Origin: Acidimicrobiales bacterium
GTDB taxonomy: Bacteria; Actinomycetota; Acidimicrobiia; Acidimicrobiales; SZUA-35
Direction of reading: 5' to 3'
NCBI GenBank assembly: GCA_965216655.1
Contig: CBDCGP010000058.1
Coordinates: 9,593-73,592, forward strand
DNA length: 64,000 nucleotides
Made by a program: the position numbers and the translations under genes. Below the pieces are notes generated by a model. It was not told the DNA's origin. It ran no database searches and was given only the letters and a program-made list of their open reading frames with translations. Position 1 is the first letter of the stretch. Every line of letters starts with the position of its first letter. This document shows, in pieces, positions 1,418 through 18,818 of the stretch.

Positions 1418-1434
1418 CGACGGAGGTCCAACAA

Positions 1435-1483
1435 CCGTTCTGTGTCTGTCAGCTCCAGGTTCTTGGAGCTGACAGACACAGAA
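1435..1483. repeat. Palindromic element copy 1 (REP-like or bidirectional terminator)
   Basis: Perfect 20-bp inverted repeat TTCTGTGTCTGTCAGCTCCA-ggttct-TGGAGCTGACAGACACAGAA (1438-1483) between convergent genes. Confidence 0.85.
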
Positions 1484-1501: not shown

Positions 1502-2017
1502 TTACTCGAACAATCCGAGCATGGTGCGCAGGAGATGTTCGAGGTCGCGGCGTTCGTCGGCCGGCATGTCGGCCAGGAGGGCGGCGTCGCGGCGGGTGAT
1601 CTCGGCGACGATGTCGTCGATCAGTGTGATGCCCTTGGCGGTCAGCTTGACGTTGACGACGCGGCGGTCGTCGGGGTCGATGGTGCGCTTGATCAGGCCG
1701 AGGCCCTCGAGGCGGCTCAAGCGCTGTGACACACCACCGGAGCTGAGGCGGGACACCTCCCGCAGCTCACCGACCGTCAGCTCGTAGGGCTCCCCCGACC
1801 GCCGCAGCTCGGCCAGCACATCGGCGATGATCGGGTCGGCGTCGAACAGCTCCAGAACGGCGTTGCGTTGCTCCATGAGGTGGCGGCCGATGCGCCAGAT
1901 CCGAGACACGATGCCGATGGAGGACACGTCGAACTCGGGGTGGATCTCGGACCACGCCCGCTGGATCCGATCGACGGCATCCGTCTCGACCACCTCCGAA
2001 CTGTTCACCCGTGTCAC
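1502..2017 (-). CDS. marR: MarR-family transcriptional regulator (HucR/PecS/TamR-like N-terminal helix)
   Basis: DAVDRI..AW N-terminus; winged helix LSSGGVSQRLSRLE..GLIKR..DPDDRR...VKLT.KG. Confidence 0.88.
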   Translation of the reverse strand: MTRVNSSEVVETDAVDRIQRAWSEIHPEFDVSSIGIVSRIWRIGRHLMEQRNAVLELFDADPIIADVLAELRRSGEPYELTVGELREVSRLSSGGVSQRLSRLEGLGLIKRTIDPDDRRVVNVKLTAKGITLIDDIVAEITRRDAALLADMPADERRDLEHLLRTMLGLFE

Positions 2018-2038
2018 GACACTCCTCTTGCTCGTTCG

Positions 2039-2944
2039 CTATCCCAGCACCAGGCACCGAACCTCGATGCTCTCCCGGCCGACGCCGTCTTCAGGTGTTC
2101 GGTTCGTCCGGTTCGCCGGCGGGGAGAAGGCCGTGTGCAGGCTGAAGGTGCACGGCCCCGACTCCGATCGGTCGGCCCGGCGGCCTGCGCTGCGAGCCAT
2201 CGCCCCATGGGAATCCCACTGCTTGATCAGGATAGCCTCGTCCTGAGTCACCTCCGGAAACCACCACCACCGGTGGGCGTCGGAGACCTTGGCGAAGTAG
2301 TTCTCCCCGATGCGGTGGGGATACCGGATCTCGAACACGGCCAGGTCCTCCGGTGCGATCGAGGCTCCGTCGCAGAGGGCGAGCGGGGCGTCGACCACCG
2401 GCCGGGGAGACCGGTTCCGCCAGACGTTCACGATCCGCCACCGCTGGCGCCCGGCGACGGCGTCGGCAAGATCGTGCTCCTCCGCCAGATCCCGCAGGCG
2501 CTGCGGCGCGCCGTCGAGGGTGTAGTCGCCGTGCACGATCCGGGCCGGACCCTGCACGGTCTGTCCGTCCTGGATGCGACGCCCCTGACGATCCCGGGCC
2601 GACGATCGCACGTTGTAGTCGAAGGTGATGACCCGCTCGGCGCCGGTGACGGCGGCCACCAGGTCGCGGCAGGCGGGCAGATGGCGGCTCCTGATGTCGT
2701 GGTCGTCGAGGTAGTCGACATCCGGCACCGAACTCTCGACCAGTTCGACGGCGGCCGAGTCGAGGTCGGAGCCGTTCGGATGATCCCGACCGTCGTTGAT
2801 GTCGACCGTCGTCGGGTCGACGTGCACGCCGAAGAATCCGTGGTCGGTGCCGTCCGCATCGCGTTGGGTGTAGAGCTGCCCGGTTCGATGCAGCGACGAC
2901 GGCGTGTCGGCGCTCAGGTAGGGCAGTTCGGCTCGAACGGTCAT
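2039..2944 (-). CDS. CmcJ/NvfI-family oxidoreductase-like protein
   Basis: ATG at 2944 overlaps the gshB stop. Motifs FDYNVR, VHGDYT, RWRIVNVWR, PLALCD, HRWWWFP, LIKQWDS, HTAF and RESIEVR characterise this family. Confidence 0.72.
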   Translation of the reverse strand: MTVRAELPYLSADTPSSLHRTGQLYTQRDADGTDHGFFGVHVDPTTVDINDGRDHPNGSDLDSAAVELVESSVPDVDYLDDHDIRSRHLPACRDLVAAVTGAERVITFDYNVRSSARDRQGRRIQDGQTVQGPARIVHGDYTLDGAPQRLRDLAEEHDLADAVAGRQRWRIVNVWRNRSPRPVVDAPLALCDGASIAPEDLAVFEIRYPHRIGENYFAKVSDAHRWWWFPEVTQDEAILIKQWDSHGAMARSAGRRADRSESGPCTFSLHTAFSPPANRTNRTPEDGVGRESIEVRCLVLG

Positions 2945-3930
2945 CACGCTGTCGTCTCCCGTTTCCACAGCTCCTCGACGAACGACACGTAGCGGTCGGC
3001 GACATCGATCCCGCAGAGTGCGTGGATCTCCCGCATCCCCGTCGGACTGGTCACGTTGATCTCGGTCACGTAGCCTCCGATCACGTCGAGCCCCACGAAC
3101 CACAGCCCGTCACGGACGAGGGTCGGGCCGAGCTCGGCGAGGATCCGCTCGACGTCGTCGTCGATCAGGTCGGGTCTGGTCTCACCGCCGGTCGCCATGT
3201 TGCAGCGGAAGTCGCCGCTTCGGGCCAGGCGCACCACAGAGCCGACGGGTTGACCGTCGATCACGATGACCCGGCGATCACCACCGTCGTCGACCTCGGG
3301 GATGAAGGCCTGCACCATCACATGGATCCGCCCGCGCTCGGTCAGGCCGTCGAGGATGGATCCGAGGTTCGGGTCGTCGCCTCGCAGCAGCAGGATCCCC
3401 CGACCGGCCATCCCGTTTGTCGGTTTGCCCACGCCCACGCCGACCCGGGTCACGAACTCCCGGATCCGGGCCCGATCGGCCGACACGATGGTCTCCGGCA
3501 TCAGGTTGCGGTGGTGGAGGCCGTACAACTTCTCGTTGGCGTTGCGCAGGCCGGACGGTCGGTTGACCACCACCGTTCGAGCGGGGTCGACGTGATCGAG
3601 CAGGTAGGTGGCCCGGAGGTAGGCGTCGTCGACCGGCGGGTCGGTGCGCATCGAGACGATCCCGAAGTCCGACAGCGGCCGCCGGGTGGGATCATCCAGT
3701 TCGAGCCAGTGATCGACCGCGCTCCAGTGGCCGGCGTCGTCGAGCTTGGCCGGCTCCACCCGTAGCTGCCGCACCGTGGCGTCGGCACCGTTGCGCCCGA
3801 TGCCGAGTTCATCGGCTGTGCAGCCCCAGACCTCGTGGCCATGACGTTGCGCGGCCTCGATCATGGCCACGGTCGAGTCGTGCCCGGGATCGAGGCGTTC
3901 GAAGGGATCGGCGACGAACAGCAGCTTCAT
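2944..3930 (-). CDS. gshB: Glutathione synthetase
   Basis: MKLLFVADP..DSTVAM, MRTDPP, NRPSGLRNANEK, KP..GMAGRG, GDRRV, DFRCNMA.GG, FVGLDVIG, EINVTSPTG. Confidence 0.93.
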   Translation of the reverse strand: MKLLFVADPFERLDPGHDSTVAMIEAAQRHGHEVWGCTADELGIGRNGADATVRQLRVEPAKLDDAGHWSAVDHWLELDDPTRRPLSDFGIVSMRTDPPVDDAYLRATYLLDHVDPARTVVVNRPSGLRNANEKLYGLHHRNLMPETIVSADRARIREFVTRVGVGVGKPTNGMAGRGILLLRGDDPNLGSILDGLTERGRIHVMVQAFIPEVDDGGDRRVIVIDGQPVGSVVRLARSGDFRCNMATGGETRPDLIDDDVERILAELGPTLVRDGLWFVGLDVIGGYVTEINVTSPTGMREIHALCGIDVADRYVSFVEELWKRETTA

Positions 3931-5201
3931 CAGGTGAGACTCCGATCGAACCATCCGGCGCCGATGTCGCCGGCCGCCACCCTCGTCATCAAATCCGATT
4001 CGACGATTCCGTAGCGTGGACCGATGGTAGGCGCCGGATCATTGTCGTTGATTGACCAGGTCAGCACCGGACCGGCGGGGTGAGGGGCGGGCGGCGACGG
4101 TACCGATCGCTCGATGACCACGGGCGGGCGGAACCAGCCCATGCGATGGATCCGGTCGTCGGGCACGTCGAGTGTCCCCGCGACTATCCGGGCGTCCGGT
4201 TCGGCGATCCATGCGGCGGTGGTGTCGCCGGTCGCCCGGCGGGTGGCGTCGTTGACGAGCGGCGCGGGTGTCAACGACGGCAACGCGACACGCAGTCGCT
4301 CCTCGAACTCGGCCGCGACCGAGCGGTGACAGTGGACGTGTTGGAGTCCCAGCGGACCGCCGGCGGTGTTGGCCCGTAGGCCGAACATCACCGTTTCGAG
4401 CAGCACGTCCAGTTGCTCGACGGTTGCCGCGGGCGCCACGATCAGGTGCTGTTCGGGCCCCGCCGTTCCTCGCGCCGTGCGGCCCCGGCGTCGGCACGAC
4501 GCGGTCACCGAGGTCACCGTCGAGGCTGAACCCCGGATCACGATCGTATCGATTCCCGGGTGGGCGACCATGGCCGAGCCGACGTCGGTCCCCTGTCCCT
4601 GCACCAGGTTCACCGCTCCGGCGGGTAGGTCCGATTCGACCAGCACCGCCACCATCGACGCCACGGTGAGGGGTGCCCGAATCGACGGCTTGATCACGAC
4701 CGGATGCCCCGAGAACAGACTCGGCAGCACCGAGGCGGCCATCTCGATCACGGGGCTGCCCCACCCGAGAATATGGCCGACAACGGTGCCAGGGCTCGGG
4801 TGGTAAGGGACCTCGTCGGTCGTCAACCGTTCGGCCAGTGAGAGCGCGCCGGCGACCAGGGTCGACGAGTCGGCCGCAACCAGTCCGAGCTCGGCCGACT
4901 GCTGTTCGGCCAGCTCGAAGCTGGCCGCCGCCAGCCGGTCGACGACGCGGGCAAGCGCGGACCGGCGGGTGGTGGCGTCTTGCCACGACGATCGAGCCGC
5001 CGTGGCGGCCGCAACCGCGTCGTCGACGTCGAAGCGGGAGGAGAACGGCACGACGGCCAGCACCTCACTGGTGACCGGGCTGAAGATCTCAAGCTCGAAG
5101 GGGGCACGGGGGAAGATCCAGGAGCCACCGATGTGGTTACGCTCGAACTGGTCGCCGTCGAAGAGGGCTTCGATGTCGGGGGTCGTCTCGACGTGGTCCA
5201 T
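3930..5201 (-). CDS. Aldehyde dehydrogenase-family protein with degenerate catalytic motifs (aldH2-like position)
   Basis: ALDH scaffold (NHIGG.W, DVDDAVAAA, VVIKPS..APLT, LPAGAVNLVQG.G) but PWN, ELGG and the catalytic Cys motifs are not recognisable. Confidence 0.75.
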   Translation of the reverse strand: MDHVETTPDIEALFDGDQFERNHIGGSWIFPRAPFELEIFSPVTSEVLAVVPFSSRFDVDDAVAAATAARSSWQDATTRRSALARVVDRLAAASFELAEQQSAELGLVAADSSTLVAGALSLAERLTTDEVPYHPSPGTVVGHILGWGSPVIEMAASVLPSLFSGHPVVIKPSIRAPLTVASMVAVLVESDLPAGAVNLVQGQGTDVGSAMVAHPGIDTIVIRGSASTVTSVTASCRRRGRTARGTAGPEQHLIVAPAATVEQLDVLLETVMFGLRANTAGGPLGLQHVHCHRSVAAEFEERLRVALPSLTPAPLVNDATRRATGDTTAAWIAEPDARIVAGTLDVPDDRIHRMGWFRPPVVIERSVPSPPAPHPAGPVLTWSINDNDPAPTIGPRYGIVESDLMTRVAAGDIGAGWFDRSLT

Positions 5202-5218
5202 GGTCGATCCGCCCACCC

Positions 5219-6244
5219 TCACTGAAACCGATCGAAGAAGACTCGTTCGGCAGCCGCCTTGCCCGTTCGCACCAACTGAGCGAGCACGGCGTCGACCATC
5301 CCGGCCGGCCCGCACAGGTACACATCGACGTCGGTGAGATCGTCCCAGTCGGCGTCGACGAGGTCGCCGACGAGCCCCGTTCGACAGTCGGAATCCGGGT
5401 CGGTCTCGACAGCATGGTGCACGGTGACACCGGTGGCGGTGAACCCCGCCAGCTCATCGAGGCAGAACCGGTCGGCGGGAACCCGGCTGCCGACGTAGAA
5501 ATGGACGGCGCGCTCCGGCGAATCGACGAGGGCCTGTTCCACGATGGCCAGCATCGGGCCCAGCCCCGATCCCCCGGCGATGGCCACGATCGGGCGATCG
5601 GCCGGGCTCTGGAGGTGGGCGAACCCGTAGGGCCCCTCGACGACCACGCCGTCTCCCTCGGAGAGCCGGTCGAAGATCCAGGCGGTGGCCGCACCACCCG
5701 GTTTGGCCCGAACGATGACCTCCAGTTCGGGGTCGTCGCCCGGGCCCGAAGAACGATACGCAGCCGACATCGAGTAGGCGCGACGTACCCCGTCGGTGAA
5801 CTCGACGATCACGTACTGCCCGGCCCGATACGGCATCTCGTCGGTGATCCGCAGCACGAGCCGCCGGGTGTTGTGATTGAGGTCGACGATCGAGCTGACG
5901 ACGGCCTTGGTCCGTACCAGACGGGTCGGTTCGGATCGAGGGATAATCGGAGCCTTGATGACGCAGTCGGCGGTGACCACCGATTGACAGGCCAGGATCT
6001 TGTTACCCGCCCGATGGTCGCGCTCCTTCAGCCCGGTGGCTTCCGGCCACATCGACTCGACGCTGCCCTCCACCAGACGTACCTTGCACATGCCGCAGCC
6101 CCCGCTGGCGCACTCATATGGCAGCTCGACCCCCGCGGCCAACCCGGCCGCCAGCATCGTGGGGTAGCCGGCGGTCGAAAACGACAGGTCGGCTCCCGCC
6201 ACGGTCACGGTGGGCGCGTCGGCGGAGTGCAGACTGCTAGGCAT
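5219..6244 (-). CDS. isoF: Soluble diiron monooxygenase reductase (2Fe-2S / FAD / NAD)
   Basis: LPYECASGGCGMCK..C 2Fe-2S motif, RAYS FAD motif, EGPYG, IAGGSGLGP, YLCGP; last gene of the monooxygenase block. Confidence 0.88.
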   Translation of the reverse strand: MPSSLHSADAPTVTVAGADLSFSTAGYPTMLAAGLAAGVELPYECASGGCGMCKVRLVEGSVESMWPEATGLKERDHRAGNKILACQSVVTADCVIKAPIIPRSEPTRLVRTKAVVSSIVDLNHNTRRLVLRITDEMPYRAGQYVIVEFTDGVRRAYSMSAAYRSSGPGDDPELEVIVRAKPGGAATAWIFDRLSEGDGVVVEGPYGFAHLQSPADRPIVAIAGGSGLGPMLAIVEQALVDSPERAVHFYVGSRVPADRFCLDELAGFTATGVTVHHAVETDPDSDCRTGLVGDLVDADWDDLTDVDVYLCGPAGMVDAVLAQLVRTGKAAAERVFFDRFQ

Positions 6245-7310
6245 CGACAAGCGATGCGTCCAGTTCTCCGAGGAAGTCGCGGTGGGCGCTCCGGGTCGCG
6301 TCCGCCAGTTCCTCGGCCGTCCGGCCCACACCGGTTGCCACCAGACGGGCGCCGGCTGCGATGATGTCGTCGGTCCGATCGGACCATTCGTCGACCACCC
6401 CGTCGATCACCTCCCCGTTGGCGTCGTCAGACGCCACGATATGGCGGATCAGCTCGGCCGTCCACCGCCGGGAGCGACCGCCGTCGATCGCCAGGTTGGC
6501 GAACAGCAGGCTGTCGAGATCGCCGCCCAGGTTCCCGACCTCGTCGGCGTAGGCGTCGAGGAACAACAAGTCGAGCACCGGTTTCAGCATCACCTGGGTC
6601 ACGACGAGGGCCTGATCCCACCGGTATACGAGGAGAGCCTCCTCGATCGCCCGTCGGACAGGTTGCCAGTCGTCGGCCGTCTCCCAGGAGGTTCGCTCAT
6701 CGGATCCGAAACCGGCGTCCGGGTGGGCGAGTCCGAGCATTTTGGTCCGCAGCGCGATCCGCTGGATCCGGCGGACGAGATCGGCGGCCTGGAACGAGGC
6801 GCAGTTGGCCACGTACGCGCTGGGGGCCAGCTGTTGGACGTAGGCCGACAGCATCTGCAAGCCGTGCGCCGGATAACGGCTCGGGGTCATCACCCGGGCT
6901 TGGTACTCGACGAGTTCCGGGGACGCGTCGGCGTCGGAGTCGGCGTTGCCGTCGAACCGGTCGAGGAGCGCGTCGACGTGGGTCTCGGCCTCGTCCTGCA
7001 TGGCGCAGTAGGTCTCGTAGGTCAGCTGATCGGGATCGCGGAATCCCTCCCAGTCGACGTTCGCGAGCGCCATGCCGTCGCGATAGGTGCGCAGCCAGTC
7101 GTTGCCGTTGACGTCGGGCCCGAGCTCGAGCGGGGTGTCGCCCATGGTGTGGTTCATGCCGTGGGTGACGATCTCGTAGGTCGTCGGTTTGCGGCCGAGG
7201 TCGCCGAGTTCGCTCCAGGTCTTGGCCCGCCGGCGGCGGCCTCGCCGGGCCGGACGGCTGGTCTGACTATCGTCGTTTGCGGTGTCTGTGTTCAACGCGT
7301 CTTCACTCAT
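6237..7310 (-). CDS. isoE: Isoprene/alkene monooxygenase hydroxylase beta subunit
   Basis: KTWS.LG..RKPTTYEIVT, WEGFRDPD.LTY..Y, RY..HGLQM..AYV.QLAP, WQPVRR; ATG at 7310. Confidence 0.88.
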   Translation of the reverse strand: MSEDALNTDTANDDSQTSRPARRGRRRRAKTWSELGDLGRKPTTYEIVTHGMNHTMGDTPLELGPDVNGNDWLRTYRDGMALANVDWEGFRDPDQLTYETYCAMQDEAETHVDALLDRFDGNADSDADASPELVEYQARVMTPSRYPAHGLQMLSAYVQQLAPSAYVANCASFQAADLVRRIQRIALRTKMLGLAHPDAGFGSDERTSWETADDWQPVRRAIEEALLVYRWDQALVVTQVMLKPVLDLLFLDAYADEVGNLGGDLDSLLFANLAIDGGRSRRWTAELIRHIVASDDANGEVIDGVVDEWSDRTDDIIAAGARLVATGVGRTAEELADATRSAHRDFLGELDASLVDA

Positions 7311-7318
7311 CGCTGCCC

Positions 7319-7642
7319 TCAGCTTTCGTAGTACCAGCGGATGTGGCTGGTGCGGGTCTCGAGCCGGCCTTTGAACGACGGCATCTGAATCTCGATCTCG
7401 GCCAGGCGGATGTCTCGTCCGTAGTGTTTGCGCAGCGACTCCTGGGTCAGCCGGCACTCCTGGACGGTGTGGATGCGGACGTAGTCGTCGCGGTCGAGCA
7501 CGAACACGTCGGAGGACGGGTTGTCCTCCTCGATGGCGTCGATCACGGCCTCGGCCAGAGGGCCGGAGCGGATGATCGGGCCGACCAGGGTTCGCTCATC
7601 GACGGACTCATCGGTCCAATCGTCGATCTCCAATACGGGCAT
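7319..7642 (-). CDS. isoD: Monooxygenase coupling/effector protein (MmoB/DmpM family)
   Basis: VGPII....A.AVIDAIEEDNP..DRDDYVRI..EI.MPSF.GR, typical of TmoD/IsoD effectors. Confidence 0.88.
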   Translation of the reverse strand: MPVLEIDDWTDESVDERTLVGPIIRSGPLAEAVIDAIEEDNPSSDVFVLDRDDYVRIHTVQECRLTQESLRKHYGRDIRLAEIEIQMPSFKGRLETRTSHIRWYYES

Positions 7643-7645
7643 GGG

Positions 7646-8080
7646 CTACCCCTTCTCGTTCGGTTGCTCGTTCAGTTGTTCGTCTAATTGACTGCCTTCT
7701 GCGGCCGACCCGATGAGGTCGGCGCTGCGGCCGATGGGCTCGGCACTCACGTAGATCACGCCGTCGCGAACCTCGCAGGCGTGGCGGACAAGACATTCGT
7801 TGGCCGGGTTGATCCCGAGGCCGGTCTCGGCGTCGAACTGCCATTCGTGGGCCCGGCAGGTCAGCACCGTGCCGTCGAGATCGCCGTCGACCAGTGAGAA
7901 GCTCTGGTGGGGGCAGATGCCGTCGTAGGCGTGGAACTCACCGTCGATCCTGACGATCAGTACCTCCCGGTCGCCGAGGTCGAAGGCGTCCATCTCGCCG
8001 TCCCAGAACTCGTCGGCGTCGGCCACGTCGACCAGGTCGACGCCCGGCGTCTGCTCGGCGATCGAGGAGCTGTCAGTCAT
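7646..8080 (-). CDS. isoC: Rieske [2Fe-2S] ferredoxin
   Basis: Rieske ligands CPHQ and CRAHEWQFD. Confidence 0.88.
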   Translation of the reverse strand: MTDSSSIAEQTPGVDLVDVADADEFWDGEMDAFDLGDREVLIVRIDGEFHAYDGICPHQSFSLVDGDLDGTVLTCRAHEWQFDAETGLGINPANECLVRHACEVRDGVIYVSAEPIGRSADLIGSAAEGSQLDEQLNEQPNEKG

Positions 8081-8324
8081 CTCGAAATTTCACGTCGACC
8101 CAGGCCAGCGGGGCGAGTCCCAGCTCGCCCAGTTTGGTGCTTGGATCGATCACCTTGCCGTCGACCAGGACGTCCATGGGTCGATCATCCTCGGGGAGGC
8201 GCCGACCGAGGGTGTGCACGGCCACCTGCTGGGCGATCGAGTTCATGTCGTCGTCGGTGTCGACCGGGCAGAGGTGAGGAACGAAGTCGCCGACGAACCG
8301 GCCGTAGATGGGAAAGAGAGCCAT
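8073..8324 (-). CDS. isoB: Monooxygenase gamma subunit (TmoB family)
   Basis: MALFPIYGRFVGDFVPHL..VDT.D.M..IAQQVA.H..GRR, TmoB/IsoB-like, 83 aa. Confidence 0.88.
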   Translation of the reverse strand: MALFPIYGRFVGDFVPHLCPVDTDDDMNSIAQQVAVHTLGRRLPEDDRPMDVLVDGKVIDPSTKLGELGLAPLAWVDVKFRDD

Positions 8325-8351
8325 GAGAGTCCTTTCTGTCGTGCCGACCGG

Positions 8352-9839
8352 TTAGACCGCTACCGGATCATCCGCGTAGTCGGCCGCCCACGCGTAGTCG
8401 TAGGCGTCGTCGCCCATCACCTCGGGCGTGATGTCCATCCAGGCCAGGCCGCCCTCGAGGCTCATGGGCTGAATCATGCCGGCGATGAAGCGGTCGACCA
8501 CGCTCATGTGGCCGGCGTAGCGGTCGGGTTCGAGGTCGAAGCACCATTTCGAGATGGCGGAGTCGAACTGGTAGATCCGGCCGTTGTACTCCGTCTTGTG
8601 TTCGGCCAGGGTGTGGCGGTTGCCCGATGAGCCGAGCGGGAGCTGGGTCAGGTTGCACAGCGCGGGCAGCGTGAGCGGTCCGGTCCGTTCCGGATGACCG
8701 GTGTTGACGCTGTGGATGATCTCGTCCCACAGCACCCCCCAGTCGTCCTCCCACGTCGGGTACTTCTCCACCAGCCACTCCCGCTCGGCTTTCGACACCC
8801 CGGCGTTCGGCTTCCAGAACAGCGTCGGCCGCCAATACCAGGTGCCGATGTGCATGGCGTGATGGCCCTGCTCCAGCGAGGCCAGGAACTCCTCCCAGTA
8901 CCACGGCTTCGCCAAGCCGTAGTCCTCGAGGATCCGTTCGTGGTGATTGACGATCCACTCGAGCATGAACTCCTTGAACGACATCTTCCGGCGGTCGAGC
9001 GGTGTGTAGTAGTCCATCGCCGTGCCGGTCAGCGTCTGGAACAGACGGGTGGCCCGCCAGAACGCGACGTCGAGTGCCTGTTGGGCCCGCTCCGGATCGT
9101 GCTCCATCATCACCTGGAGCGTCGGGAAACCCTGCTGGGCGTGGCGGGCCTCGTCGGTCTGGATCGACGAGAGAAGGTTGGAGAAGTTGATGTCGCCGGC
9201 CTCCATGGCGTCAGCCGCCAGGGCGACGAACTGGATGTTGGTGAAGCCATGCTCGACGGTGAGGCTGGTGGCCAGCGAGGCCTCAATGCAATCGGCGCTG
9301 AGCATCACGTCGTCGAAGAAGTTCTTAACGGCGAGCACCCCCCACTCGTTGGTCTTGAACGCATGCTGGGCCCAGTCGAACCGCTGGTCGTGTTCGAGCA
9401 GGCTGTGGGAGAACAGCAGGTCGAGCTGGCTGTGGCGAATCTCGTCGAGCATGCCGAACACCGAGATGTTGCGCCACTTCGGCGTCGGGGCGAACCGGCA
9501 GAACCGGCTCTGCATCGTGACCGCCATCTGCTCGACCATGTTCGTCGTGCCCATGTGGAGCTGGGAGGTGGCGACGTGGGCCGGGTCGAGGTTCTCGAAG
9601 ATGTTCGACCGGCCGAGCGCCTCGCTCACCGCCCGCACCCCGGTGTCCTTTTCCCGCTGCACGGCGACGTAGTCGCGGTAGGAGACCCGGAACGGCTCCT
9701 CCCAGGCCTGCCACGCCTCGGCGGGAGTGTCGCCGGTCCCGGTCCATCTGTCGGGGAAGGCGTCGTCGTGGTCGACATAGCTGAGATCCCAGTCGAGATC
9801 CCGGGAGATGTCGTACCAATCGTCTCGGTCCAAGATCAT
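8352..9839 (-). CDS. isoA: Isoprene/alkene monooxygenase hydroxylase alpha subunit
   Basis: Two DExRH diiron motifs (DEIRH, DEARH), DDWYDI.RDLDW, EHGFTNIQF, SFKEFMLEW; flanked by isoGHIJ-like genes. Confidence 0.92.
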   Translation of the reverse strand: MILDRDDWYDISRDLDWDLSYVDHDDAFPDRWTGTGDTPAEAWQAWEEPFRVSYRDYVAVQREKDTGVRAVSEALGRSNIFENLDPAHVATSQLHMGTTNMVEQMAVTMQSRFCRFAPTPKWRNISVFGMLDEIRHSQLDLLFSHSLLEHDQRFDWAQHAFKTNEWGVLAVKNFFDDVMLSADCIEASLATSLTVEHGFTNIQFVALAADAMEAGDINFSNLLSSIQTDEARHAQQGFPTLQVMMEHDPERAQQALDVAFWRATRLFQTLTGTAMDYYTPLDRRKMSFKEFMLEWIVNHHERILEDYGLAKPWYWEEFLASLEQGHHAMHIGTWYWRPTLFWKPNAGVSKAEREWLVEKYPTWEDDWGVLWDEIIHSVNTGHPERTGPLTLPALCNLTQLPLGSSGNRHTLAEHKTEYNGRIYQFDSAISKWCFDLEPDRYAGHMSVVDRFIAGMIQPMSLEGGLAWMDITPEVMGDDAYDYAWAADYADDPVAV

Positions 9840-9933
9840 GGTGAGTCCTCCTGGATTCGGTGCCCGCTATCGAGTTGTTGTCGGTGTGTTGTCGGTCGTC
9901 TTTCCGGGTTGGATCAAAAATCGTGTGGTTGAA

Positions 9934-10635
9934 TCACGCATCCGGCGGATCGGTGCCGAAGAGTTGGCGCCACTGCTCGTCGGTGTAGGCGAACGCTCGG
10001 GCCGTCTCGTCACGTTGGTCCTCGACCTGCACCTTGGCCGCCGGTCGGGCCTTGATCCGCTCCGACCAGGCCTTCACGTTCGGGTAGTCGTCGAGGTCGA
10101 CGCCGTGGCCCCTCGCCACCCGGGTCCACGGGAAGCACATGATGTCGGCGATCGAGTACTCGTCGACCAGGTACTCCCGACCCTCCAAGTGGGCGTCGAG
10201 CACCTCGTAGGTGATTGCGGCCTGACGGGTATAGCGGTCGCGCGCGTAGCTGTCGTCGACCCCCCGGTCCCGGGCATATTGGAGGAAGTGCGCTGCCTGA
10301 CCGGCCATCGGGCCCTGGTTCGCCACCTGCCAGTGGACCCACGCCCGGGCCTGCCATGCCTTCGCCGGATCGGTGGGCAGCAGGCGTCCGGTCTTGTCGG
10401 CCAGGTACTCGAGGATGGCGCCCGACTCGAACAACGGCAGCGGCTCGCCGCCCGGTCCGTCGTGATCGACGATCGCCGGGATCTTCCCGTTGGGGTTGAT
10501 GGCCCGGAACTCCGGTGTGTGCTGGTCGCCTCGGGAGATGTCGGTCCAGCGGATCGTGTAGTCGAGCTCCATCTCCTCGAGCGCGATCAACACCTTCCGT
10601 CCGTTCGGTGAAACGTAGTAGAAGAAGTCGATCAT
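9934..10635 (-). CDS. isoJ: Glutathione S-transferase (YfcG/YghU-like)
   Basis: ATG at 10635. SPNGRKV.IALEE, INPNGKIPAI.D, LFESGAIL.YLA, YSIADI..FPW; immediately upstream of isoA. Confidence 0.85.
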   Translation of the reverse strand: MIDFFYYVSPNGRKVLIALEEMELDYTIRWTDISRGDQHTPEFRAINPNGKIPAIVDHDGPGGEPLPLFESGAILEYLADKTGRLLPTDPAKAWQARAWVHWQVANQGPMAGQAAHFLQYARDRGVDDSYARDRYTRQAAITYEVLDAHLEGREYLVDEYSIADIMCFPWTRVARGHGVDLDDYPNVKAWSERIKARPAAKVQVEDQRDETARAFAYTDEQWRQLFGTDPPDA

Positions 10636-10654
10636 GACGGCCGGTCCCAGGTCC

Positions 10655-11401
10655 TCAGATTTTGTATTTCTCCCGCATCCGGTCGGCGTATTCCACCAGG
10701 TTGGTTTTGGAGGCGACGTAGCCCGTGCCCGCCCACTCCTGCGGCTGGTCCATGCAGTGGCGAACCTCGGAGTAGAACCCGGCGTCGTACGACGTCGGCT
10801 GGTCACCCAGGAGGAAGTCCTTGTCGGCCAGGAAGTCCGACATGGCGTCGACGTCGTCTTTGAAGAACTCGAACACCTCCTCGTCGGTGCGACGGCCCAT
10901 GCCCTGACCGTTGAATCCATCGACGATCCGCTGCCGGAATGCGGTGGCGAAGTCCTGGACGGCCGGGTCGAGGGAGTTCCACACCTCGTCGTAGGACTTG
11001 TCGCCCTGGCCGAAGATGTAGGGGATATAGGTCTCGAAGCCCGAGTCCTCCCGCCAACGGGGTTGGATCACCCCCGACCAGTAGAGGTTCTCGTCGGTGA
11101 GGCGGGTGAACGCGAGGCCGATGGCATGCTCCTGGGCGCTCAGGTGATCGTCGATCGTGTGGCCCCGGGTCTCCTTCAGATACTCGATGATGCGCTGCGA
11201 ATCGTGGACCTTGGTGCCGTCCTCGTCGACGATGTAGGGCAGCTTGCCGGCCGGGGCGTCATTGTCGAGGGCCGCCAGATCCTGATTGACGAACTCGTAG
11301 TCGGTGTCGGTCATCGTCATGTAATTGGCGACCTTGGTGACGTATGGGCTGATGCACGGGAGACCCCACGCCCCGATGTATCCGTACAGCTTGAGTGCCA
11401 T
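10655..11401 (-). CDS. isoI: Isoprene-epoxide glutathione S-transferase
   Basis: YGY..AWG.P.ISPYVTKV, GKLPYIVD.DGTKV.DS, LYWSG.IQ.RW, DGFNGQGMGRR, DQPQ.W.G.GYV; matches the IsoI-type GST as I recall it. Confidence 0.88.
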   Translation of the reverse strand: MALKLYGYIGAWGLPCISPYVTKVANYMTMTDTDYEFVNQDLAALDNDAPAGKLPYIVDEDGTKVHDSQRIIEYLKETRGHTIDDHLSAQEHAIGLAFTRLTDENLYWSGVIQPRWREDSGFETYIPYIFGQGDKSYDEVWNSLDPAVQDFATAFRQRIVDGFNGQGMGRRTDEEVFEFFKDDVDAMSDFLADKDFLLGDQPTSYDAGFYSEVRHCMDQPQEWAGTGYVASKTNLVEYADRMREKYKI

Positions 11402-11467
11402 GTTCTTGAATCCCCTTCTTTTGGTTGTTCGGTACTGCCTTTGACTTCTGGTTGGTCCGCCGCTCCC

Positions 11468-12166
11468 CTACCAGGGGAGGTACTCCCCGTTCGAGTGCTG
11501 AAATCGGCCGGACGTCTCCAGCGTCAGTGCATCCATGTTCGCTATGATCCCCTCGGCCGCCTGCTCCGGTTGGATGTAGGCGTAATCGCCCGGAATGTCC
11601 TTGGTCAGATCGGTGGCCACCATGCCCGGATGGTTCATGAGCACGGCGATGCCCCGCTTCGACAGATCGTGGTGCAGGTTGACGCCGACCATGTTGGCCG
11701 CCGCCTTCGACAGGCGGTAGGCGTACATGCCGCCGCTGCCGTTGTCTCCGAGCGATCCGACCCGGCTGGTGGTGATGCTGACCTTGGCCCCGTCGGCCAG
11801 GAACGGGAGCAACGCCTCGGTCACCCGGAGCGGCCCGATGGTGTTGATCTCGAACTGGCGGCGCACGTCGTCGTAGTCGATCGAGCCGAGTTCGTCGAGA
11901 CCGAGGACTCCGGCGTTGTTGATCAGCCAGTCGATCTTGATCTCACGTTCGTCGATGGCCTTGGCCAGTCGCTCGACGGCGGCCCCGTCGGTGACGTCGA
12001 TCTCGCCGACCACGTCGATGCCGTCGGGCAGGTCGGATCCGTCGAACTGGCAGGCGGCGATGGCGTGGTCACCTCGCTCGTGGAGCTGCTCGATGAGGCA
12101 CCGGCCGATGCCCCGGTCGGCCCCGGTCACCACAGCCACTCGGGGCTCCGGCCCGGCGGCGGTCAT
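11468..12166 (-). CDS. isoH: Short-chain dehydrogenase (HGMB dehydrogenase-like)
   Basis: VVTGADRGIG, LINNAG, catalytic YRLSK; sits between isoG and isoI. Confidence 0.8.
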   Translation of the reverse strand: MTAAGPEPRVAVVTGADRGIGRCLIEQLHERGDHAIAACQFDGSDLPDGIDVVGEIDVTDGAAVERLAKAIDEREIKIDWLINNAGVLGLDELGSIDYDDVRRQFEINTIGPLRVTEALLPFLADGAKVSITTSRVGSLGDNGSGGMYAYRLSKAAANMVGVNLHHDLSKRGIAVLMNHPGMVATDLTKDIPGDYAYIQPEQAAEGIIANMDALTLETSGRFQHSNGEYLPW

Positions 12167-13395
12167 GAGGCCGCCTCCAGCTCGCTGTCCACATCGTCAT
12201 CCAAGTCCTCGACACCGACGATGCCGGCCTCACGGAGCGCGGCCTGGCGGTCGCCGTCGTAGCCGAGTTCGGACAGGATCTCGCTGTTGTGCTGGCCGAG
12301 CAAGGGCGCTCCCCGGGGGCTCGACGGCGGGGTCGCACCGAACCGGGCCGGTACACGGGTCTGGCGGAGCGGCCCGGCGATGGGGTGGTCGTTGACGACG
12401 ACGGTCTCGTTGTGTACCACCTGAGGATCGTCGAGCACCTGGGCCCTGGTGAGGGCGGGAGCGCACGGCACGTCCCACTTCTCGAGGATCTCCAGCCACT
12501 CGGCGACGGTGCGGGTGGCGATGGTGTCCTGGATGATCTGAAGGCGTTCGTTGACGTTCTGGTCGCGGGCGGTCGGGGTCGCGAACCGGGGATCGGTGAT
12601 CAGTTCCTCCTGATCGGTGGCCTTGCAGAAGGCCTCCCACTCGTTGTTGCTCATCGTCGACACCGTCATGTAGCCGTCGGATGCCTCGTAGATGAGGTCG
12701 ATGAAGCTGGCGGCCCGGGCCGGTTCGATCTCCTTGTCGGCAAAGGTGTAGGCCCCCATGTCGGACGCCCACAGGAACGACAGGATCGAGTCGATCATCG
12801 ACAGTTCGATGTGCTGGCCGACGCCCTGGCGATCGCGGGCAATGATGGCGGCCAGGATCGTCTGCGAGGCGGTGATGGCGCTGAGTTTGTCGGGGAGGAT
12901 GGTGCGCAGCAGTTTGGGGCGGGCGTCGTCGCTCCCGGCCTGGAGGGTGGTGAGGCCGGAGAGCGCCTGGATGATCGGGTCGTAGACCCGCCGTTTGGCG
13001 TAGGGCCCGGACTGGCCGAAGCCGCTGATCGACAGATAGATGATGTCGTCCTTGACCGCCTTGGCCGCCTCGTAGCCGACACCCAACCGGTCGACCACGC
13101 CGGGGCGGAAGTTCTGGACCACCACGTCGGCGGAGCGGTACAGGTCGAACAAAACCTCTTTGCCTTGTTGCTCTTTCAGGTTGAGGGTGATCGACCGCTT
13201 CGACCGGTTGATGTTGAGGAACATCGAGCTCATGCCACCCGAGCGGTTCTGCAGGGCTCGGGTGTGGTCGCCGACTCCGGGCACCTCGACCTTGATCACG
13301 TCGGCCCCGAGGTCGCCGAGCACATCGGTGGCGTAGGGGCCGGACAGCATGCTCGAGAGGTCGATGATGCGGATTCCGTCGAGCGGACCTGGCAT
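12163..13395 (-). CDS. isoG: CaiB/BaiF family III CoA-transferase
   Basis: GPLDGIRIIDL..GP.A..LGDLGADVIKVE, NRSKRSITLNLK, NFRPG, ISGFGQ.GPY, APLLGQH; ATG at 13395. Confidence 0.85.
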   Translation of the reverse strand: MPGPLDGIRIIDLSSMLSGPYATDVLGDLGADVIKVEVPGVGDHTRALQNRSGGMSSMFLNINRSKRSITLNLKEQQGKEVLFDLYRSADVVVQNFRPGVVDRLGVGYEAAKAVKDDIIYLSISGFGQSGPYAKRRVYDPIIQALSGLTTLQAGSDDARPKLLRTILPDKLSAITASQTILAAIIARDRQGVGQHIELSMIDSILSFLWASDMGAYTFADKEIEPARAASFIDLIYEASDGYMTVSTMSNNEWEAFCKATDQEELITDPRFATPTARDQNVNERLQIIQDTIATRTVAEWLEILEKWDVPCAPALTRAQVLDDPQVVHNETVVVNDHPIAGPLRQTRVPARFGATPPSSPRGAPLLGQHNSEILSELGYDGDRQAALREAGIVGVEDLDDDVDSELEAAS

Positions 13396-13454
13396 GTCGT
13401 GTGTCCTTCCCTCCCGAGGTTGTGCAGCCCGGGAAGCCTTTGAGATTAACGTAG

Positions 13455-13481
13455 TGACAAAGTATCTTAGTGTCAAAGACA
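13455..13481. promoter_or_regulatory. Candidate MarR operator in the divergent isoG/gshA promoter region
   Basis: AT-rich intergenic with overlapping dyads TGACA-N11-TGTCA (13455-13475) and TCTT-N7-AAGA within TATCTTAGTGTCAAAGAC. Confidence 0.45.
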
Positions 13482-13508
13482 ATTTCCCAGGAAGGGTCGG
13501 CGAGATTC

Positions 13509-14779
13509 ATGGGTCATCCCACGACGTTGACGGTCGACGATTGCCGCATGGCTGTCGCCGACTGCTTCCGACCCGGAACCGGTTTCCGGGTCGGCTTGGA
13601 GCTGGAGCTGTTCACCGCTCTTCCCGACGGGGGGCGACCGCCGATAGAGCTGCTCGAGTCGGTTGTGTCGTCGCTGGACCCACCGTGCGGTGGCCGCCTT
13701 TCTCTCGAGCCGGGTGGCGCGGTGGAGTTGTCGACAAGGCCGGGGACCAGCGTCGGCGAAGTGTGTCGTGCGGCCCGGGACGGCCTTGCGGTCGTCGTCA
13801 CCGAGCTGGGCGAGCGCGGGATCCTGACCGCGATCGGCGCCATCGACACCGATCGTCCACCGAGGCGACTCGTCACCCACCCCCGGTACAGATATATGGA
13901 GGCCCAATTCGACGCCTACTCACCGGCCGGGCGGTGGATGATGAACAACACGGCGTCGTTGCAGGTCAACATCAGCAACTGCTCGCTCGATCCGCTGGCG
14001 CAGTGGTCGGCTCTGTGGCGGGCGGCGCCGGTGCTCACGGCCATGTTCGCCGACTCCCCCGGCGTCGACACCGACGGTCAACGGTGGGCCTCGCTACGCC
14101 AGGGGTGCTGGCTGGCCCTCGACCCCGCTCGCACCGGACCCGTGGCCCCGTCCGAGGGTGTCGACGGTTACGCCGACTTCGCGCTCGGCGCCCCGGTCCT
14201 CGTGGTTGCCGACGACGGGCGGGGCGACGTCGGTGAGAGCTGGCGTCCGGCGCCTACCCGACTGTCGTTCGTCGATTGGATTCGGGATCCGTCCACCATC
14301 GGGTGGCCGCCGACTGCCGACGACTTCGCCTACCACCTCAGCACACTGTTTCCCGACATCCGCCCTCGGGGCTGGATGGAGGTGCGCTGCATCGACATGG
14401 GCGACCTCGACCACCTCGAGGCGGTGGTCGCGATGGTGGAGGCCGTCGGCTCGCCGCCGCTGGCCGCGTACATCGATGAGCACATCCCGGTGCTGTCACC
14501 GATTCGGGCCGCTCGTGCGGGACTTGATGATCCGGATATCTGGGCGGCGACGAAGAACCTGGTTCGGCTCGCTCTGGCGGTGGCGCCAGTGCTCCCGGGT
14601 GGGTCGGGCGATCACCTACGGCGGTTCGTGGAGCGGTACACCGCCCAGCAGCGGTCGCCCGGTTGGGGTCGCGGGTTGGCGCCTCAATCGTTCACCCCTG
14701 ACTTCAAACGCCGTTCTGAGTCTGTCAGCTCCAGGTCTTTGAAGCTGACAGACCCAGAAGCGTTGCCGACGGCCGTCGA

Positions 14780-14804
<25 letters not shown>
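13509..14804 (+). CDS. gshA: Glutamate-cysteine ligase (GCS2 family)
   Basis: VGLELE, LSLEPGGAVELS, PRY..ME, GRWMM..TASLQVN, LTAMFADSP, HLSTLFPDIRPRGWMEVR.ID; divergent from the iso operon and complements gshB. Confidence 0.82.
14711..14759. repeat. Palindromic element copy 2
   Basis: CCGTTCTGAGTCTGTCAGCTCCAGGTCTTTGAAGCTGACAGACCCAGAA, 44/49 identical to 1435-1483 by manual alignment; near the convergent gshA/amylosucrase junction. Confidence 0.8.
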
Positions 14805-16807
<2,003 letters not shown>

Positions 16808-16896: not shown

Positions 16897-17745
16897 TCAA
16901 CCAGCGGGGTTGTTAACCGAGAGGATCTTCACCTCGGCGACCTCCATCGGGAACAGCGTCTCACGGATGATCGGCGCAAGGGTGCCGGAGAACCCGGGGT
17001 CGGTGGTTGACCAGTAGTTGATGTCCCAGCTGATGGCGATGGATGCGGGGAAGGATCGGGCGTTGCTCGCGGTCGACGAGGCGTTGATATACGTGTAGCT
17101 GCATTCACCTGGGACGTCCGGGTTGTATCCAGCCAGTGGGCCATCTCCGCCGCATGCCGCCCCGGCGATCGTTCCGTTTCTATCCCCTGACGCGAACACG
17201 AGCTGCGCCGGCTCGGCCCGGATCGTGACCGACACGGTCTCCACCGGCGTCGTCGCCGTCGCCGTCGCCTCGAACCGTTGCCATTCGCTGGGATCGGCTC
17301 GGTAGTCGATCGGCACTTGGGCATAGGCCCAGTCATAGTCGGGATCGGGCCAGATCATCAACGGCGTCGGCTCCGGCAACTGACGCTCCACCCGATCGGA
17401 CGCTTCGAGAAGCACCTCGGCGGGGTCATAGTCCCGGATCCAGACCGCTCGAGTGAACTCGCCGTTGCAAAGCTCTGAATAATACCGATACTGCACCCCG
17501 CCAATCAGCGTTCGCTCTCCGGAGGGATGCTCAGCCAACGTCGACGCAGCCGGGATGTAGTCACAGCCGGAGACTCCCCCACCACCGCCGGAATATCCTC
17601 CGTTGATGACGGCGTCGCCGCTGATGGTTTCTCGCGTCGTCCGTGCATTTGGGACGGCACCACTCGCAGCTGTCGCAGCAGCAACGCCACAACAATAAGA
17701 GAGCTGACCTATCGCCAACCCCACCGCCCTCAACCTATACCGCAC
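16897..17745 (-). CDS. Hypothetical secreted protein with C-terminal beta-rich (PKD-like) region
   Basis: Hydrophobic N-terminus, then LPEP.., A.P..L.F..GD, C....G..CSYTY...S, F......W pattern seen in actinobacterial secreted proteins. The N-terminus may be frameshifted. Confidence 0.6.
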   Translation of the reverse strand: MRYRLRAVGLAIGQLSYCCGVAAATAASGAVPNARTTRETISGDAVINGGYSGGGGGVSGCDYIPAASTLAEHPSGERTLIGGVQYRYYSELCNGEFTRAVWIRDYDPAEVLLEASDRVERQLPEPTPLMIWPDPDYDWAYAQVPIDYRADPSEWQRFEATATATTPVETVSVTIRAEPAQLVFASGDRNGTIAGAACGGDGPLAGYNPDVPGECSYTYINASSTASNARSFPASIAISWDINYWSTTDPGFSGTLAPIIRETLFPMEVAEVKILSVNNPAG

Positions 17746-18425: not shown

Positions 18426-18818
18426 CACACTCCCCTTGTCGCCCACATCGGCGCGTCGGAACACGCCGAGCGGCGAACCCGACTCGACACTTGAAACCAC
18501 TCGATCAACGAACAGACCCATCAGCGGATAGCCGCCATGAACCCAAAACCGCCTCTCAGCTCAGCCTGCATGTTCGTGATCAGCCCCGACCAATCAACGA
18601 CTGCCGACGACTATAGCCGACCGCCTCCCATCCGCATAGCGCGCAATTCAGGAACTTTCGTCACGGACGCCGACGCCGAGCGTTGATGAACGTGAGCGGC
18701 CGGGTTGTCGGCCAGGGAGCCACTGCGGCTCCACCCCGCTTGCCGGTCCCGGCCGCTCACCGTTTGCTCGCGCCCGCAGCACAACGCCTGCGCCGCCACT
18801 TCAGGGAGACCGACCGCC

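Follow-up and report, generated by a model that had tools for sequence, protein, structure and literature searches.

A horizontally acquired iso-type gene island with a probable role in isoprene oxidation in an uncultured member of the Acidimicrobiales

We analysed a 64,000 nt stretch of contig CBDCGP010000058.1 (the window) from the metagenome-assembled genome (MAG) GCA_965216655.1, which was recovered from an uncultured member of the Acidimicrobiales. The window carries a 13.4-kb horizontally acquired island of iso-type genes, including isoGHIJ, isoABCDEF and two genes for glutathione synthesis. Most likely the products of this island oxidise isoprene by the glutathione-dependent route of Rhodococcus sp. 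AD45, and we put the probability of this reading at about 0.75. The six genes of a toluene monooxygenase (TMO)-type soluble di-iron monooxygenase (SDIMO) are present in the order alpha subunit, gamma subunit, Rieske ferredoxin, effector, beta subunit and reductase (Pfam domains, from 9839 down to 5219), which is the order described as defining in PMC11825192. The genes for IsoG, IsoH, IsoI and IsoJ are directly adjacent to each other, and IsoI and IsoH pass the cut-offs of their NCBIfam equivalog models.

The proposed pathway follows the chemistry described for strain AD45 and Variovorax sp. WS11 (PMC10057887). IsoABCDEF, composed of an alpha2-beta2-gamma2 di-iron hydroxylase, a Rieske ferredoxin, an effector protein and an NADH reductase, would epoxidise isoprene. 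IsoI would join the epoxide and glutathione to HGMB (1-hydroxy-2-glutathionyl-2-methyl-3-butene), and IsoH would oxidise HGMB via the aldehyde to the acid 2-glutathionyl-2-methyl-3-butenoate (GMBA). IsoG is predicted to form the thioester of GMBA and coenzyme A (CoA), and IsoJ is predicted to strip off the glutathione. The MarR-type regulator and a conserved block between isoG and gshA probably control expression.

Gene content and order of the island

The long open reading frames (ORFs) of positions 1-21 kb were scanned against Pfam and NCBIfam, and family assignments and gene order were derived from the matches. The island contains the following features (ALDH, aldehyde dehydrogenase):

1502..2017, minus strand, marR-type regulator, 171 aa (PF12802 and PF01047)
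2039..2944, minus strand, CmcJ/NvfI-family oxidoreductase-like gene, about 301 aa (NF041278, 197.6 bits, cut-off 80; putative start)
2944..3954, minus strand, gshB, glutathione synthase (TIGR01380, 326.4 bits, cut-off 299.05; NF003573, 337.3 bits, cut-off 272)
3930..5201, minus strand, ALDH-like gene of the aldh2/ibcG type, without catalytic Cys and Glu (PF00171, 122 bits, profile positions 8-297)
5219..6244, minus strand, isoF, NADH reductase with 2Fe-2S, FAD and NAD domains (PF00111, PF00970 and PF00175; putative start)
6237..7310, minus strand, isoE, hydroxylase beta subunit (PF02332, 180.9 bits; 46-66% identity to homologues)
7319..7642, minus strand, isoD, coupling/effector protein of the MmoB/DmpM type (PF02406)
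7646..8080, minus strand, isoC, Rieske ferredoxin (PF00355)
8073..8324, minus strand, isoB, hydroxylase gamma subunit, TmoB-like (PF06234)
8352..9839, minus strand, isoA, hydroxylase alpha subunit of the SDIMO, 495 aa (PF02332 and YHS; AGGAGG ribosome-binding site upstream)
9934..10635, minus strand, isoJ, YfcG-like glutathione transferase, 233 aa (GST_N and GST_C; putative start)
10655..11401, minus strand, isoI, isoprene-epoxide glutathione S-transferase (NF049950 equivalog, 356.6 bits, cut-off 300)
11468..12166, minus strand, isoH, HGMB dehydrogenase of the short-chain dehydrogenase/reductase family (NF049951 equivalog, 353.2 bits, cut-off 350)
12163..13395, minus strand, isoG, family III CoA-transferase, about 410 aa (PF02515, 368 bits; longest ORF 12163-13482)
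13396..13508, no strand, divergent isoG/gshA spacer of 113 bp, putative control region (AT-rich block TTGAC..CTAA..TA.TTT)
13509..14804, plus strand, gshA, glutamate-cysteine ligase, GCS2/EgtA-like (PF04107, 107 bits; TIGR03444, 231.8 bits, under the cut-off of 370.8; ORF from 13470)

The 14 minus-strand genes and the divergent gshA add up to 15 genes without a broken frame. Gene lengths agree with those of the homologues in Gordonia sp. OPL2 and other loci, and the GC content at the three codon positions supports the frames (0.77-0.91 at the third position). A preliminary description made from the sequence alone had listed isoG-H-I-J-A-B-C-D-E-F, the ALDH-like gene, gshB, marR and a divergent gshA as intact. 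The Pfam and NCBIfam matches bear this out and the coordinates are exact; the CmcJ/NvfI-like gene at 2039-2944 had been overlooked.

When candidate starts that have ribosome-binding sites are used, the operon becomes very compact. The ALDH-like gene and gshB, as well as gshB and the CmcJ-like gene, overlap stop on start, and isoE/isoF and isoB/isoC overlap by 8 nt. The likely start of gshB is the ATG at 3930, which overlaps the stop of the ALDH-like gene, and the ATG of the CmcJ-like gene in turn overlaps the stop of gshB. As stops and starts of the 14 minus-strand genes overlap or nearly touch, these genes probably form a single transcription unit. The isoG start is the ATG at 13395, preceded by GGGAGGGAAGG. 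The AT-rich block in the isoG/gshA spacer is conserved in an alignment of three same-genus clusters, and the spacer contains two weak promoter-like matches. The closest NCBIfam model for IsoJ is that of glutathione-dependent disulfide-bond oxidoreductases. The conserved part of gshA stops near 14712; its tail crosses a repeat at the right edge of the island (see below) and overlaps the end of the neighbouring gene.

A cluster layout of this kind has been described for Rhodococcus, Gordonia, Nocardioides and Mycobacterium (PMC12917321; PMC4676930). Among the loci (L numbers) and genomes (G numbers; G000 is the genome of the window) that we compared, the order divergent gshA, isoGHIJ, isoABCDEF, ALDH-like gene and gshB, with marR nearby, is common to Gordonia sp. 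OPL2 (L007) and two MAG loci (L002, L008). Locus L005 has the same order and ends at gshB, and L001 in addition has the CmcJ-like gene and the marR placement after gshB that are seen in the window. A metagenome scan with IsoA gave 64 loci, 11 of which (at least 74% identity and enough length) were used, for gene order only. The order recurs in the four of them that extend from gshA to gshB; it was established by separate hits for L035, L041 and L044 and over the part between isoH and gshB for L039.

The island resembles the cluster of Rhodococcus sp. AD45, in which isoJ also adjoins isoA, gshA lies divergently and directly upstream of isoG, the ALDH-like gene follows isoF, and gshB and marR are present (PMC4676930; PMC10057887). 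The AD45 cluster, which we compared by its description, differs by its location on a megaplasmid and by a second isoGHIJ copy with a catalytic aldH, a CoA-disulfide reductase gene and a phytanoyl-CoA dioxygenase-like gene. The window, in contrast, has a single isoGHIJ, no catalytic aldH, no disulfide reductase gene, a CmcJ/NvfI-like gene and a chromosomal-looking context, and its host belongs to another class. The cultured degrader Gordonia sp. OPL2 shares the order from gshA to gshB, with 76-77% identity for IsoA and 56-64% for IsoG-J. It differs from the window by a catalytic ALDH gene between isoJ and isoA (PF00171, 467 bits), a PhyH-type dioxygenase gene, a pyridine-nucleotide disulfide oxidoreductase gene, and a marR on the gshA side.

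Closest to the window are the clusters of two genomes of the same genus, L001 in G001 and L030 in G015, with 92% identity for IsoA, 83-85% for IsoG, IsoH and IsoI, 75% for gshB and 78% for marR; the window's MarR is only 46-48% identical to those beside Gordonia and other actinomycete iso clusters. Both clusters differ from the window by their position at another chromosomal locus and by the presence of a catalytic aldH, and G015 lacks the monooxygenase genes. Orthologues of the CmcJ-like gene occupy the same position in L001 and L030 (67-68% identity), and in all three same-genus clusters this gene is translationally coupled to gshB (window 2039-2944; L001 17142-18047; L030 14852-15757). Gordonia and AD45 have a PhyH-type dioxygenase gene near the cluster where the same-genus clusters have the CmcJ/NvfI-like gene.

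The IsoA lineage

IsoA aligns end to end with the hydroxylases of ToMO and T4MO (E about 1e-171). All six di-iron ligands are kept (E103, E133, H136, E196, E230 and H233) when the protein is aligned to the ligand positions of ToMO 1t0q_A, and both E...ExxH di-iron motifs are intact. The nearest IsoA (92% identity) is that of L001, whose contig of 478 kb belongs to a MAG with the title 'uncultured Acidimicrobiales bacterium'. Identity is 76-79% to the proteins from Gordonia sp. OPL2, Parafrankia, Pseudonocardia and Jatrophihabitantaceae loci, 75% to those of Variovorax sp. WS11 and Rhodococcus sp. ACPA4, 66-67% to XamoA of Xanthobacter Py2, and about 50% to aromatic-type TMOs. Published Gram-positive IsoA proteins are 82.4-100% identical to each other and 71.2-74.6% identical to Gram-negative ones (PMC12917321). 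The identity of the window IsoA to known IsoA proteins (75-79%) falls under this Gram-positive range.

An IsoA phylogeny had been proposed in the preliminary description as a check on the assignment. In a maximum likelihood tree of 72 rows, with support from the Shimodaira-Hasegawa-like approximate likelihood ratio test, the window IsoA, L001 and six metagenome proteins form a clade of their own (8 rows, support 95). This clade is sister to a 36-row clade of actinomycete IsoA proteins including those of Gordonia OPL2 and Rhodococcus ACPA4 (joint support 98). XamoA falls into a separate alphaproteobacterial clade, and IsoA of Variovorax WS11 branches further out. The tree thus places the protein beside actinomycete IsoA and not with XamoA, but it does not fix the substrate, since isobutylene monooxygenases share the same clade. 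A topology joining the window clade with the Xamo clade was rejected by the approximately unbiased test (p 0.006; this grouping was defined post hoc, with the tree at hand). By its sequence, the window IsoA is a third lineage, intermediate between the Gram-positive and the Gram-negative types. None of the 64 loci from the metagenome scan exceeded 81% identity, and the scan added no further members of the window's subclade.

We also compared the gene with the published isoA primers (sequences from PMC6286570), as had been suggested. Primer isoA14F matches at 9809-9826 (gene position 14) without mismatch, and isoA511R at 9310-9329 (gene position 511) with one mismatch at the third base from the 3' end. 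The gene is therefore probably amplified in isoA surveys. Amplicon surveys may already contain such sequences, assigned by similarity to Rhodococcus-like degraders.

Substrate, aldehyde step and glutathione turnover

Several observations on the monooxygenase, the aldehyde step and the recycling of glutathione weigh against isoprene oxidation as the function of the island. Isobutylene monooxygenases, such as IbcA of Mycolicibacterium sp. ELW1 (74-75% identity to the window IsoA), nest inside the actinomycete IsoA clade; the ELW1 enzyme groups with relatives in M. gadium and M. paragordonae, and NCBI names its alpha subunit isoA. The active-site helices are nearly identical across Iso, Ibc and Xamo, with no clear Iso-specific residue. 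The score of IsoH is only 3 bits over the equivalog cut-off. A catalytic aldH is absent from the interval between isoJ and isoA, which measures only 94 bp versus 1.55 kb in G001. Our searches revealed no aldH orthologue in the genome, which is 90.3% complete, so that a copy on a missing contig is possible; the best other ALDH is 35-36% identical to the aldH product of the L001 cluster. An aldH is present at the isoJ/isoA junction in 8 of the 9 metagenome loci that cover it (L037 lacks it), and all seven genome loci covering the junction have a gap of 1.4-1.6 kb. In the two of these loci that were checked, Pfam confirmed an ALDH in the gap (L001, PF00171, 486 bits; L007, 467 bits). Deletion of aldH abolishes growth of Variovorax sp. 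WS11 on isoprene (PMC10057887). Finally, none of the genome's matches to glutathione reductase reached the cut-off (best score 228 bits against a cut-off of 556), and the island lacks such a gene, unlike the clusters of Gordonia and AD45.

Because the Ibc enzymes nest in the IsoA clade and the active-site helices are nearly identical, similarity of the alpha subunit alone cannot fix the substrate. As far as sequence can tell, the assignment rests on gene context, and the adjacent isoGHIJ, with IsoI and IsoH over their equivalog cut-offs, does most of the work. Iso-specific residues were considered as a substrate test and rejected: 2 of 495 columns separate five isoGHIJ-linked enzymes from Ibc and Xamo, and the window shares one of them. 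Three loci from Actinomycetota MAGs (L014, L015, L018) have IsoA-like operons with 74-76% identity and keep the ALDH-like gene, and the 10 kb upstream contain no isoGHIJ. Their enzymes may act on other alkenes, although similarity thresholds would count them as isoA.

The context separates the island from related alkene monooxygenases. The propene enzyme XamoABCDEF of Xanthobacter autotrophicus Py2 has its six genes in the order seen in the island, with the same non-catalytic type of ALDH-like gene behind them and 66-67% identity of the alpha subunit. It differs by the lack of isoGHIJ, by its use of a coenzyme M epoxide pathway, with a 2-hydroxypropyl-CoM lyase gene nearby, and by its separate clade. 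No genes for coenzyme M-dependent epoxide carboxylation were found among the 15 genes of the island, to which this search was limited. IbcABCDEF of strain ELW1 likewise shares the gene order and has the ALDH-like ibcG downstream. On pELW1-1 these genes are followed by those for a GMC alcohol dehydrogenase, an aldehyde dehydrogenase and an epoxide hydrolase, and neither isoGHIJ nor glutathione genes are part of the cluster as described (PMC13188929). An Ibc-type epoxide hydrolase, a GMC alcohol dehydrogenase and a catalytic ALDH after the monooxygenase are absent from the island. Styrene oxidation in Gordonia rubripertincta CWB2 is reported to rely on a flavin monooxygenase rather than an SDIMO. 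StyGHIJ of this strain, which we compared by description, follow a homologous logic of glutathione S-transferases, dehydrogenase and CoA-transferase, and StyI and StyJ are only 44-48% identical to IsoI and IsoJ of WS11 (PMC10057887).

The preliminary description had called the cluster complete. This holds for isoGHIJ and isoABCDEF but not for the catalytic aldH, which is essential in WS11 (PMC10057887) and for which the 94 bp between isoJ and isoA leave no room. AldH proteins of Gram-positive and Gram-negative degraders share 49-54% identity (PMC12917321), a range that the best ALDH outside the island does not reach. On the other hand, IsoH alone converts HGMB into GMBA in vitro, with AldH only accelerating the second step, and in AD45 isoJ also adjoins isoA while aldH is located beside the second isoGHIJ copy (PMC10057887). 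The missing aldH is the main argument against full function, yet it is not decisive.

In the ALDH-like gene of the island, the match to the ALDH profile is confined to the first two thirds of that profile. In ALDHs, the Glu of ELGG, the Cys of GQxC and the KPS and GxGxxxG motifs have established catalytic and NAD-binding roles. In all five proteins examined the ELGG Glu and the GQxC Cys are replaced, and KPS and GxGxxxG are kept (window 3930-5201; G001, L001 14728-16068; Gordonia, L007 14557-15975; ELW1 ibcG and Py2, L025 13615-14955 and L026 11590-12753). The gene is located behind the reductase gene in all three types of cluster (Iso, Xamo and Ibc), and judged by these residues its product looks like a conserved pseudo-enzyme. 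The paper on strain ELW1 points out that alkene SDIMOs have kept an ALDH homologue downstream and suggests that it acts as a dehydrogenase; the passages on this homologue do not mention lost catalytic residues (PMC13188929).

Glutathione is predicted to be supplied by the gshA and gshB of the island, as the preliminary description had claimed. In the genome gshB passes its cut-off once, in the island, and it does so in 4 of the 41 relatives searched, three of which are the three carriers of IsoI, with gshB located within the cluster. A second GCS2 gene is present elsewhere in the genome. For mycothiol, the thiol that the host may otherwise use, profile searches of the genome gave candidates just under the cut-offs for Mtr (best 527 bits, cut-off 636), MshC (417 bits, cut-off 485), MshB (166 bits, cut-off 224) and MshD (148 bits, cut-off 163), and MshA was not found there (best 104 bits, cut-off 462).

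These data bear on the view that the island is functional but that isoprene is not a growth substrate. Its enzymes would then serve to detoxify or co-oxidise alkenes that form epoxides, or their substrate would be a related alkene or diene, and without AldH and a glutathione-disulfide reductase no carbon would be assimilated. This view gains from the missing aldH and Gor, from the isobutylene and propene enzymes with their near-identical active-site helices in the same alpha-subunit group, and from the broad substrate range described for the isoprene monooxygenase of AD45 (PMC10667655). We nevertheless consider it unlikely. Every characterised TMO-type SDIMO beside isoGHIJ belongs to an isoprene degrader, as presented in PMC10057887 and PMC12917321; IsoH makes GMBA by itself; aldH is also missing from the isoJ/isoA junction in AD45 and in the metagenome locus L037; and the genome encodes, besides the Mtr-like protein, several other FAD disulfide reductases. 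The gene set and its order, the intact frames, the host and the island character follow directly from the data; that isoprene is the substrate, that the enzymes would be active and that the host may grow on isoprene we infer.

Host, island borders and distribution

The best named matches to the RpoB of this genome come from Acidimicrobiales/Acidimicrobiia MAGs (84-93% identity) and from Rhabdothermincola salaria (Acidimicrobiia; Iamiaceae; 85%), which places the host in the Acidimicrobiales. The Acidimicrobiia-like character of the flanking genes noted in the preliminary description was confirmed: positions 1-1353 and 14780-16716 on the two sides of the island match a 5.2-Mb contig of the same-genus genome G018 at about 83% nucleotide identity, with order and orientation conserved, and they also match a contig of G011. 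Synteny of both flanks with the chromosome of the same genus argues against mis-binning.

We therefore regard it as very improbable that the contig is mis-binned or chimeric and that the iso genes stem from an ordinary actinomycete degrader. The estimated contamination of the MAG is 4.83%, and the Logan contigs from four runs are short (2-5x depth), with no listed piece from these runs crossing the left island border. Against an artefact speak, besides the flanks, the GC content of the cluster (66.4% versus 65.7% for the genome), the related clusters in two other genomes of the genus, the location of the nearest IsoA on the long contig of an Acidimicrobiales-titled MAG, and one short-read contig that spans the right border (14444-15824, 41 differences). 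Two further Logan contigs, 8735-11398 and 9789-12714, span isoA-isoJ-isoI with 0 differences. In all, the Logan contigs contribute little independent support. The listed sequencing runs with this DNA comprise five DNA-type runs from two studies, which may include the source sample, and no RNA run.

The flanks are only 729 bp apart in G018 and 778 bp apart in G011, compared to the 13.4-kb island in the window. As they are nearly contiguous in these relatives, the 13.4 kb represent an insertion or replacement at a variable spot, which lies between an XRE-cupin regulator gene and an amylosucrase-like gene. On the right side, the match to the empty G018 site begins again at 14780. The iso cluster is thus a horizontally acquired island, and movement of such clusters from host to host has been described (PMC11825192). 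Base composition, tried as a further sign of transfer, gave no signal. Two repeats mark the edges:

1432..1483, no strand, left copy of a palindromic repeat with 20-nt perfect arms and a 6-nt loop, left island edge
14711..14759, no strand, right copy, 90% identical to the left one, right island edge

About 10 sites in the genome carry this palindromic element of 49-52 nt, and no copy turned up in the loci of relatives that were examined; it may be a recombination or terminator element similar to repetitive extragenic palindromic sequences. Apart from it nothing marks the edges, and no mobile-element genes were detected by Pfam or NCBIfam among the ORFs scanned beside the island. Two long ORFs next to the island, 18705-21245 (plus strand, 846 aa) and 16897-17745 (minus strand, 282 aa), had no Pfam match at E 0.001.

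The fillers of the empty sites are unrelated sequences of 0.7-0.8 kb (L032 4376-5077 in G018, with a GATase-like ORF; L033 3693-4470 in G011). The GATase-like ORF of G018 has no homologue in the G011 site or in the genome of the window. The site is variable and not a simple target duplication.

Within the genus, IsoI passes its cut-off in 3 of 25 genomes (G000, G001 and G015). A strong IsoA match was found in two of the 25 (G000 and G001), and three others have only SDIMOs of 28% identity. None of 400 other genomes of the class (an even draw; 178 genera covered; completeness of 90% or more for 314 of the 401 genomes searched) has an IsoI over the cut-off. By RpoB, the genome of the window is closer to cluster-free genomes (92% identity for G018 and G006, 98% over 479 aa for G011) than to the carriers G001 and G015 (89%). 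The clusters of G001 and G015 share one locus, which differs from that in the window, and are 88-92% identical at the nucleotide level, compared to 68-79% for window versus G001. Such a pattern is consistent with separate acquisition, or with relocation inside the genus, and not with simple vertical descent.

The locus in G015 is a glutathione/epoxide module without monooxygenase: gshA-isoGHIJ-aldH-gshB-CmcJ-like gene-marR are kept (L030, G015:C76, 7196-16339), and a deletion has removed the stretch from the isoA start almost to the end of the ALDH-like gene. A similar fate could be assumed for the window, with frames that are still intact but out of use. The loss in G015, an aldH that the window has lost or never had, and the patchy distribution in the genus would agree with such decay. 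It appears quite improbable, considering that none of the 15 genes is interrupted or truncated, that the GC content by codon position gives a strong signal, that ribosome-binding sites and overlapping stop/start junctions are kept, and that the di-iron ligands are intact.

Returning to isoprene oxidation, we tentatively extend it to a more far-reaching proposal, although in its full form this seems rather less probable than not. An uncultured large-genome soil genus of the Acidimicrobiales would be an unrecognised isoprene consumer with a third, deep-branching iso lineage, about as far from the actinomycete type as the latter is from the Gram-negative type. IsoH alone would perform the aldehyde step without the AldH on which Variovorax depends, and the dead ALDH-like protein behind every Iso, Xamo and Ibc reductase gene would be an accessory factor of alkene monooxygenases instead of a dehydrogenase.

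Systems of this kind are well known, and what is new is the host class, Acidimicrobiia, together with instructive variants. The three clusters of the genus form a natural series on the required genes: a full cluster with aldH, one without aldH, and isoGHIJ with aldH but without monooxygenase. Naming by IsoA similarity, whether by 70% thresholds or by the NCBI product name, takes in isobutylene monooxygenases, and gene context must therefore also be checked. Acidimicrobiia are common in soil and water. Isoprene is a plant gas emitted in amounts similar to methane, and its known bacterial consumers belong to a handful of Actinomycetes genera and some Proteobacteria (PMC12917321). We found no paper linking iso genes to Acidimicrobiia, although supplementary tables of MAG surveys that screen for IsoA could list such MAGs. 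The extension of the host range suggested in the preliminary description holds at the level of genomic potential and reaches no further. At this level, the candidate isoprene sink would gain a second actinobacterial class from an intact cluster in Acidimicrobiia.

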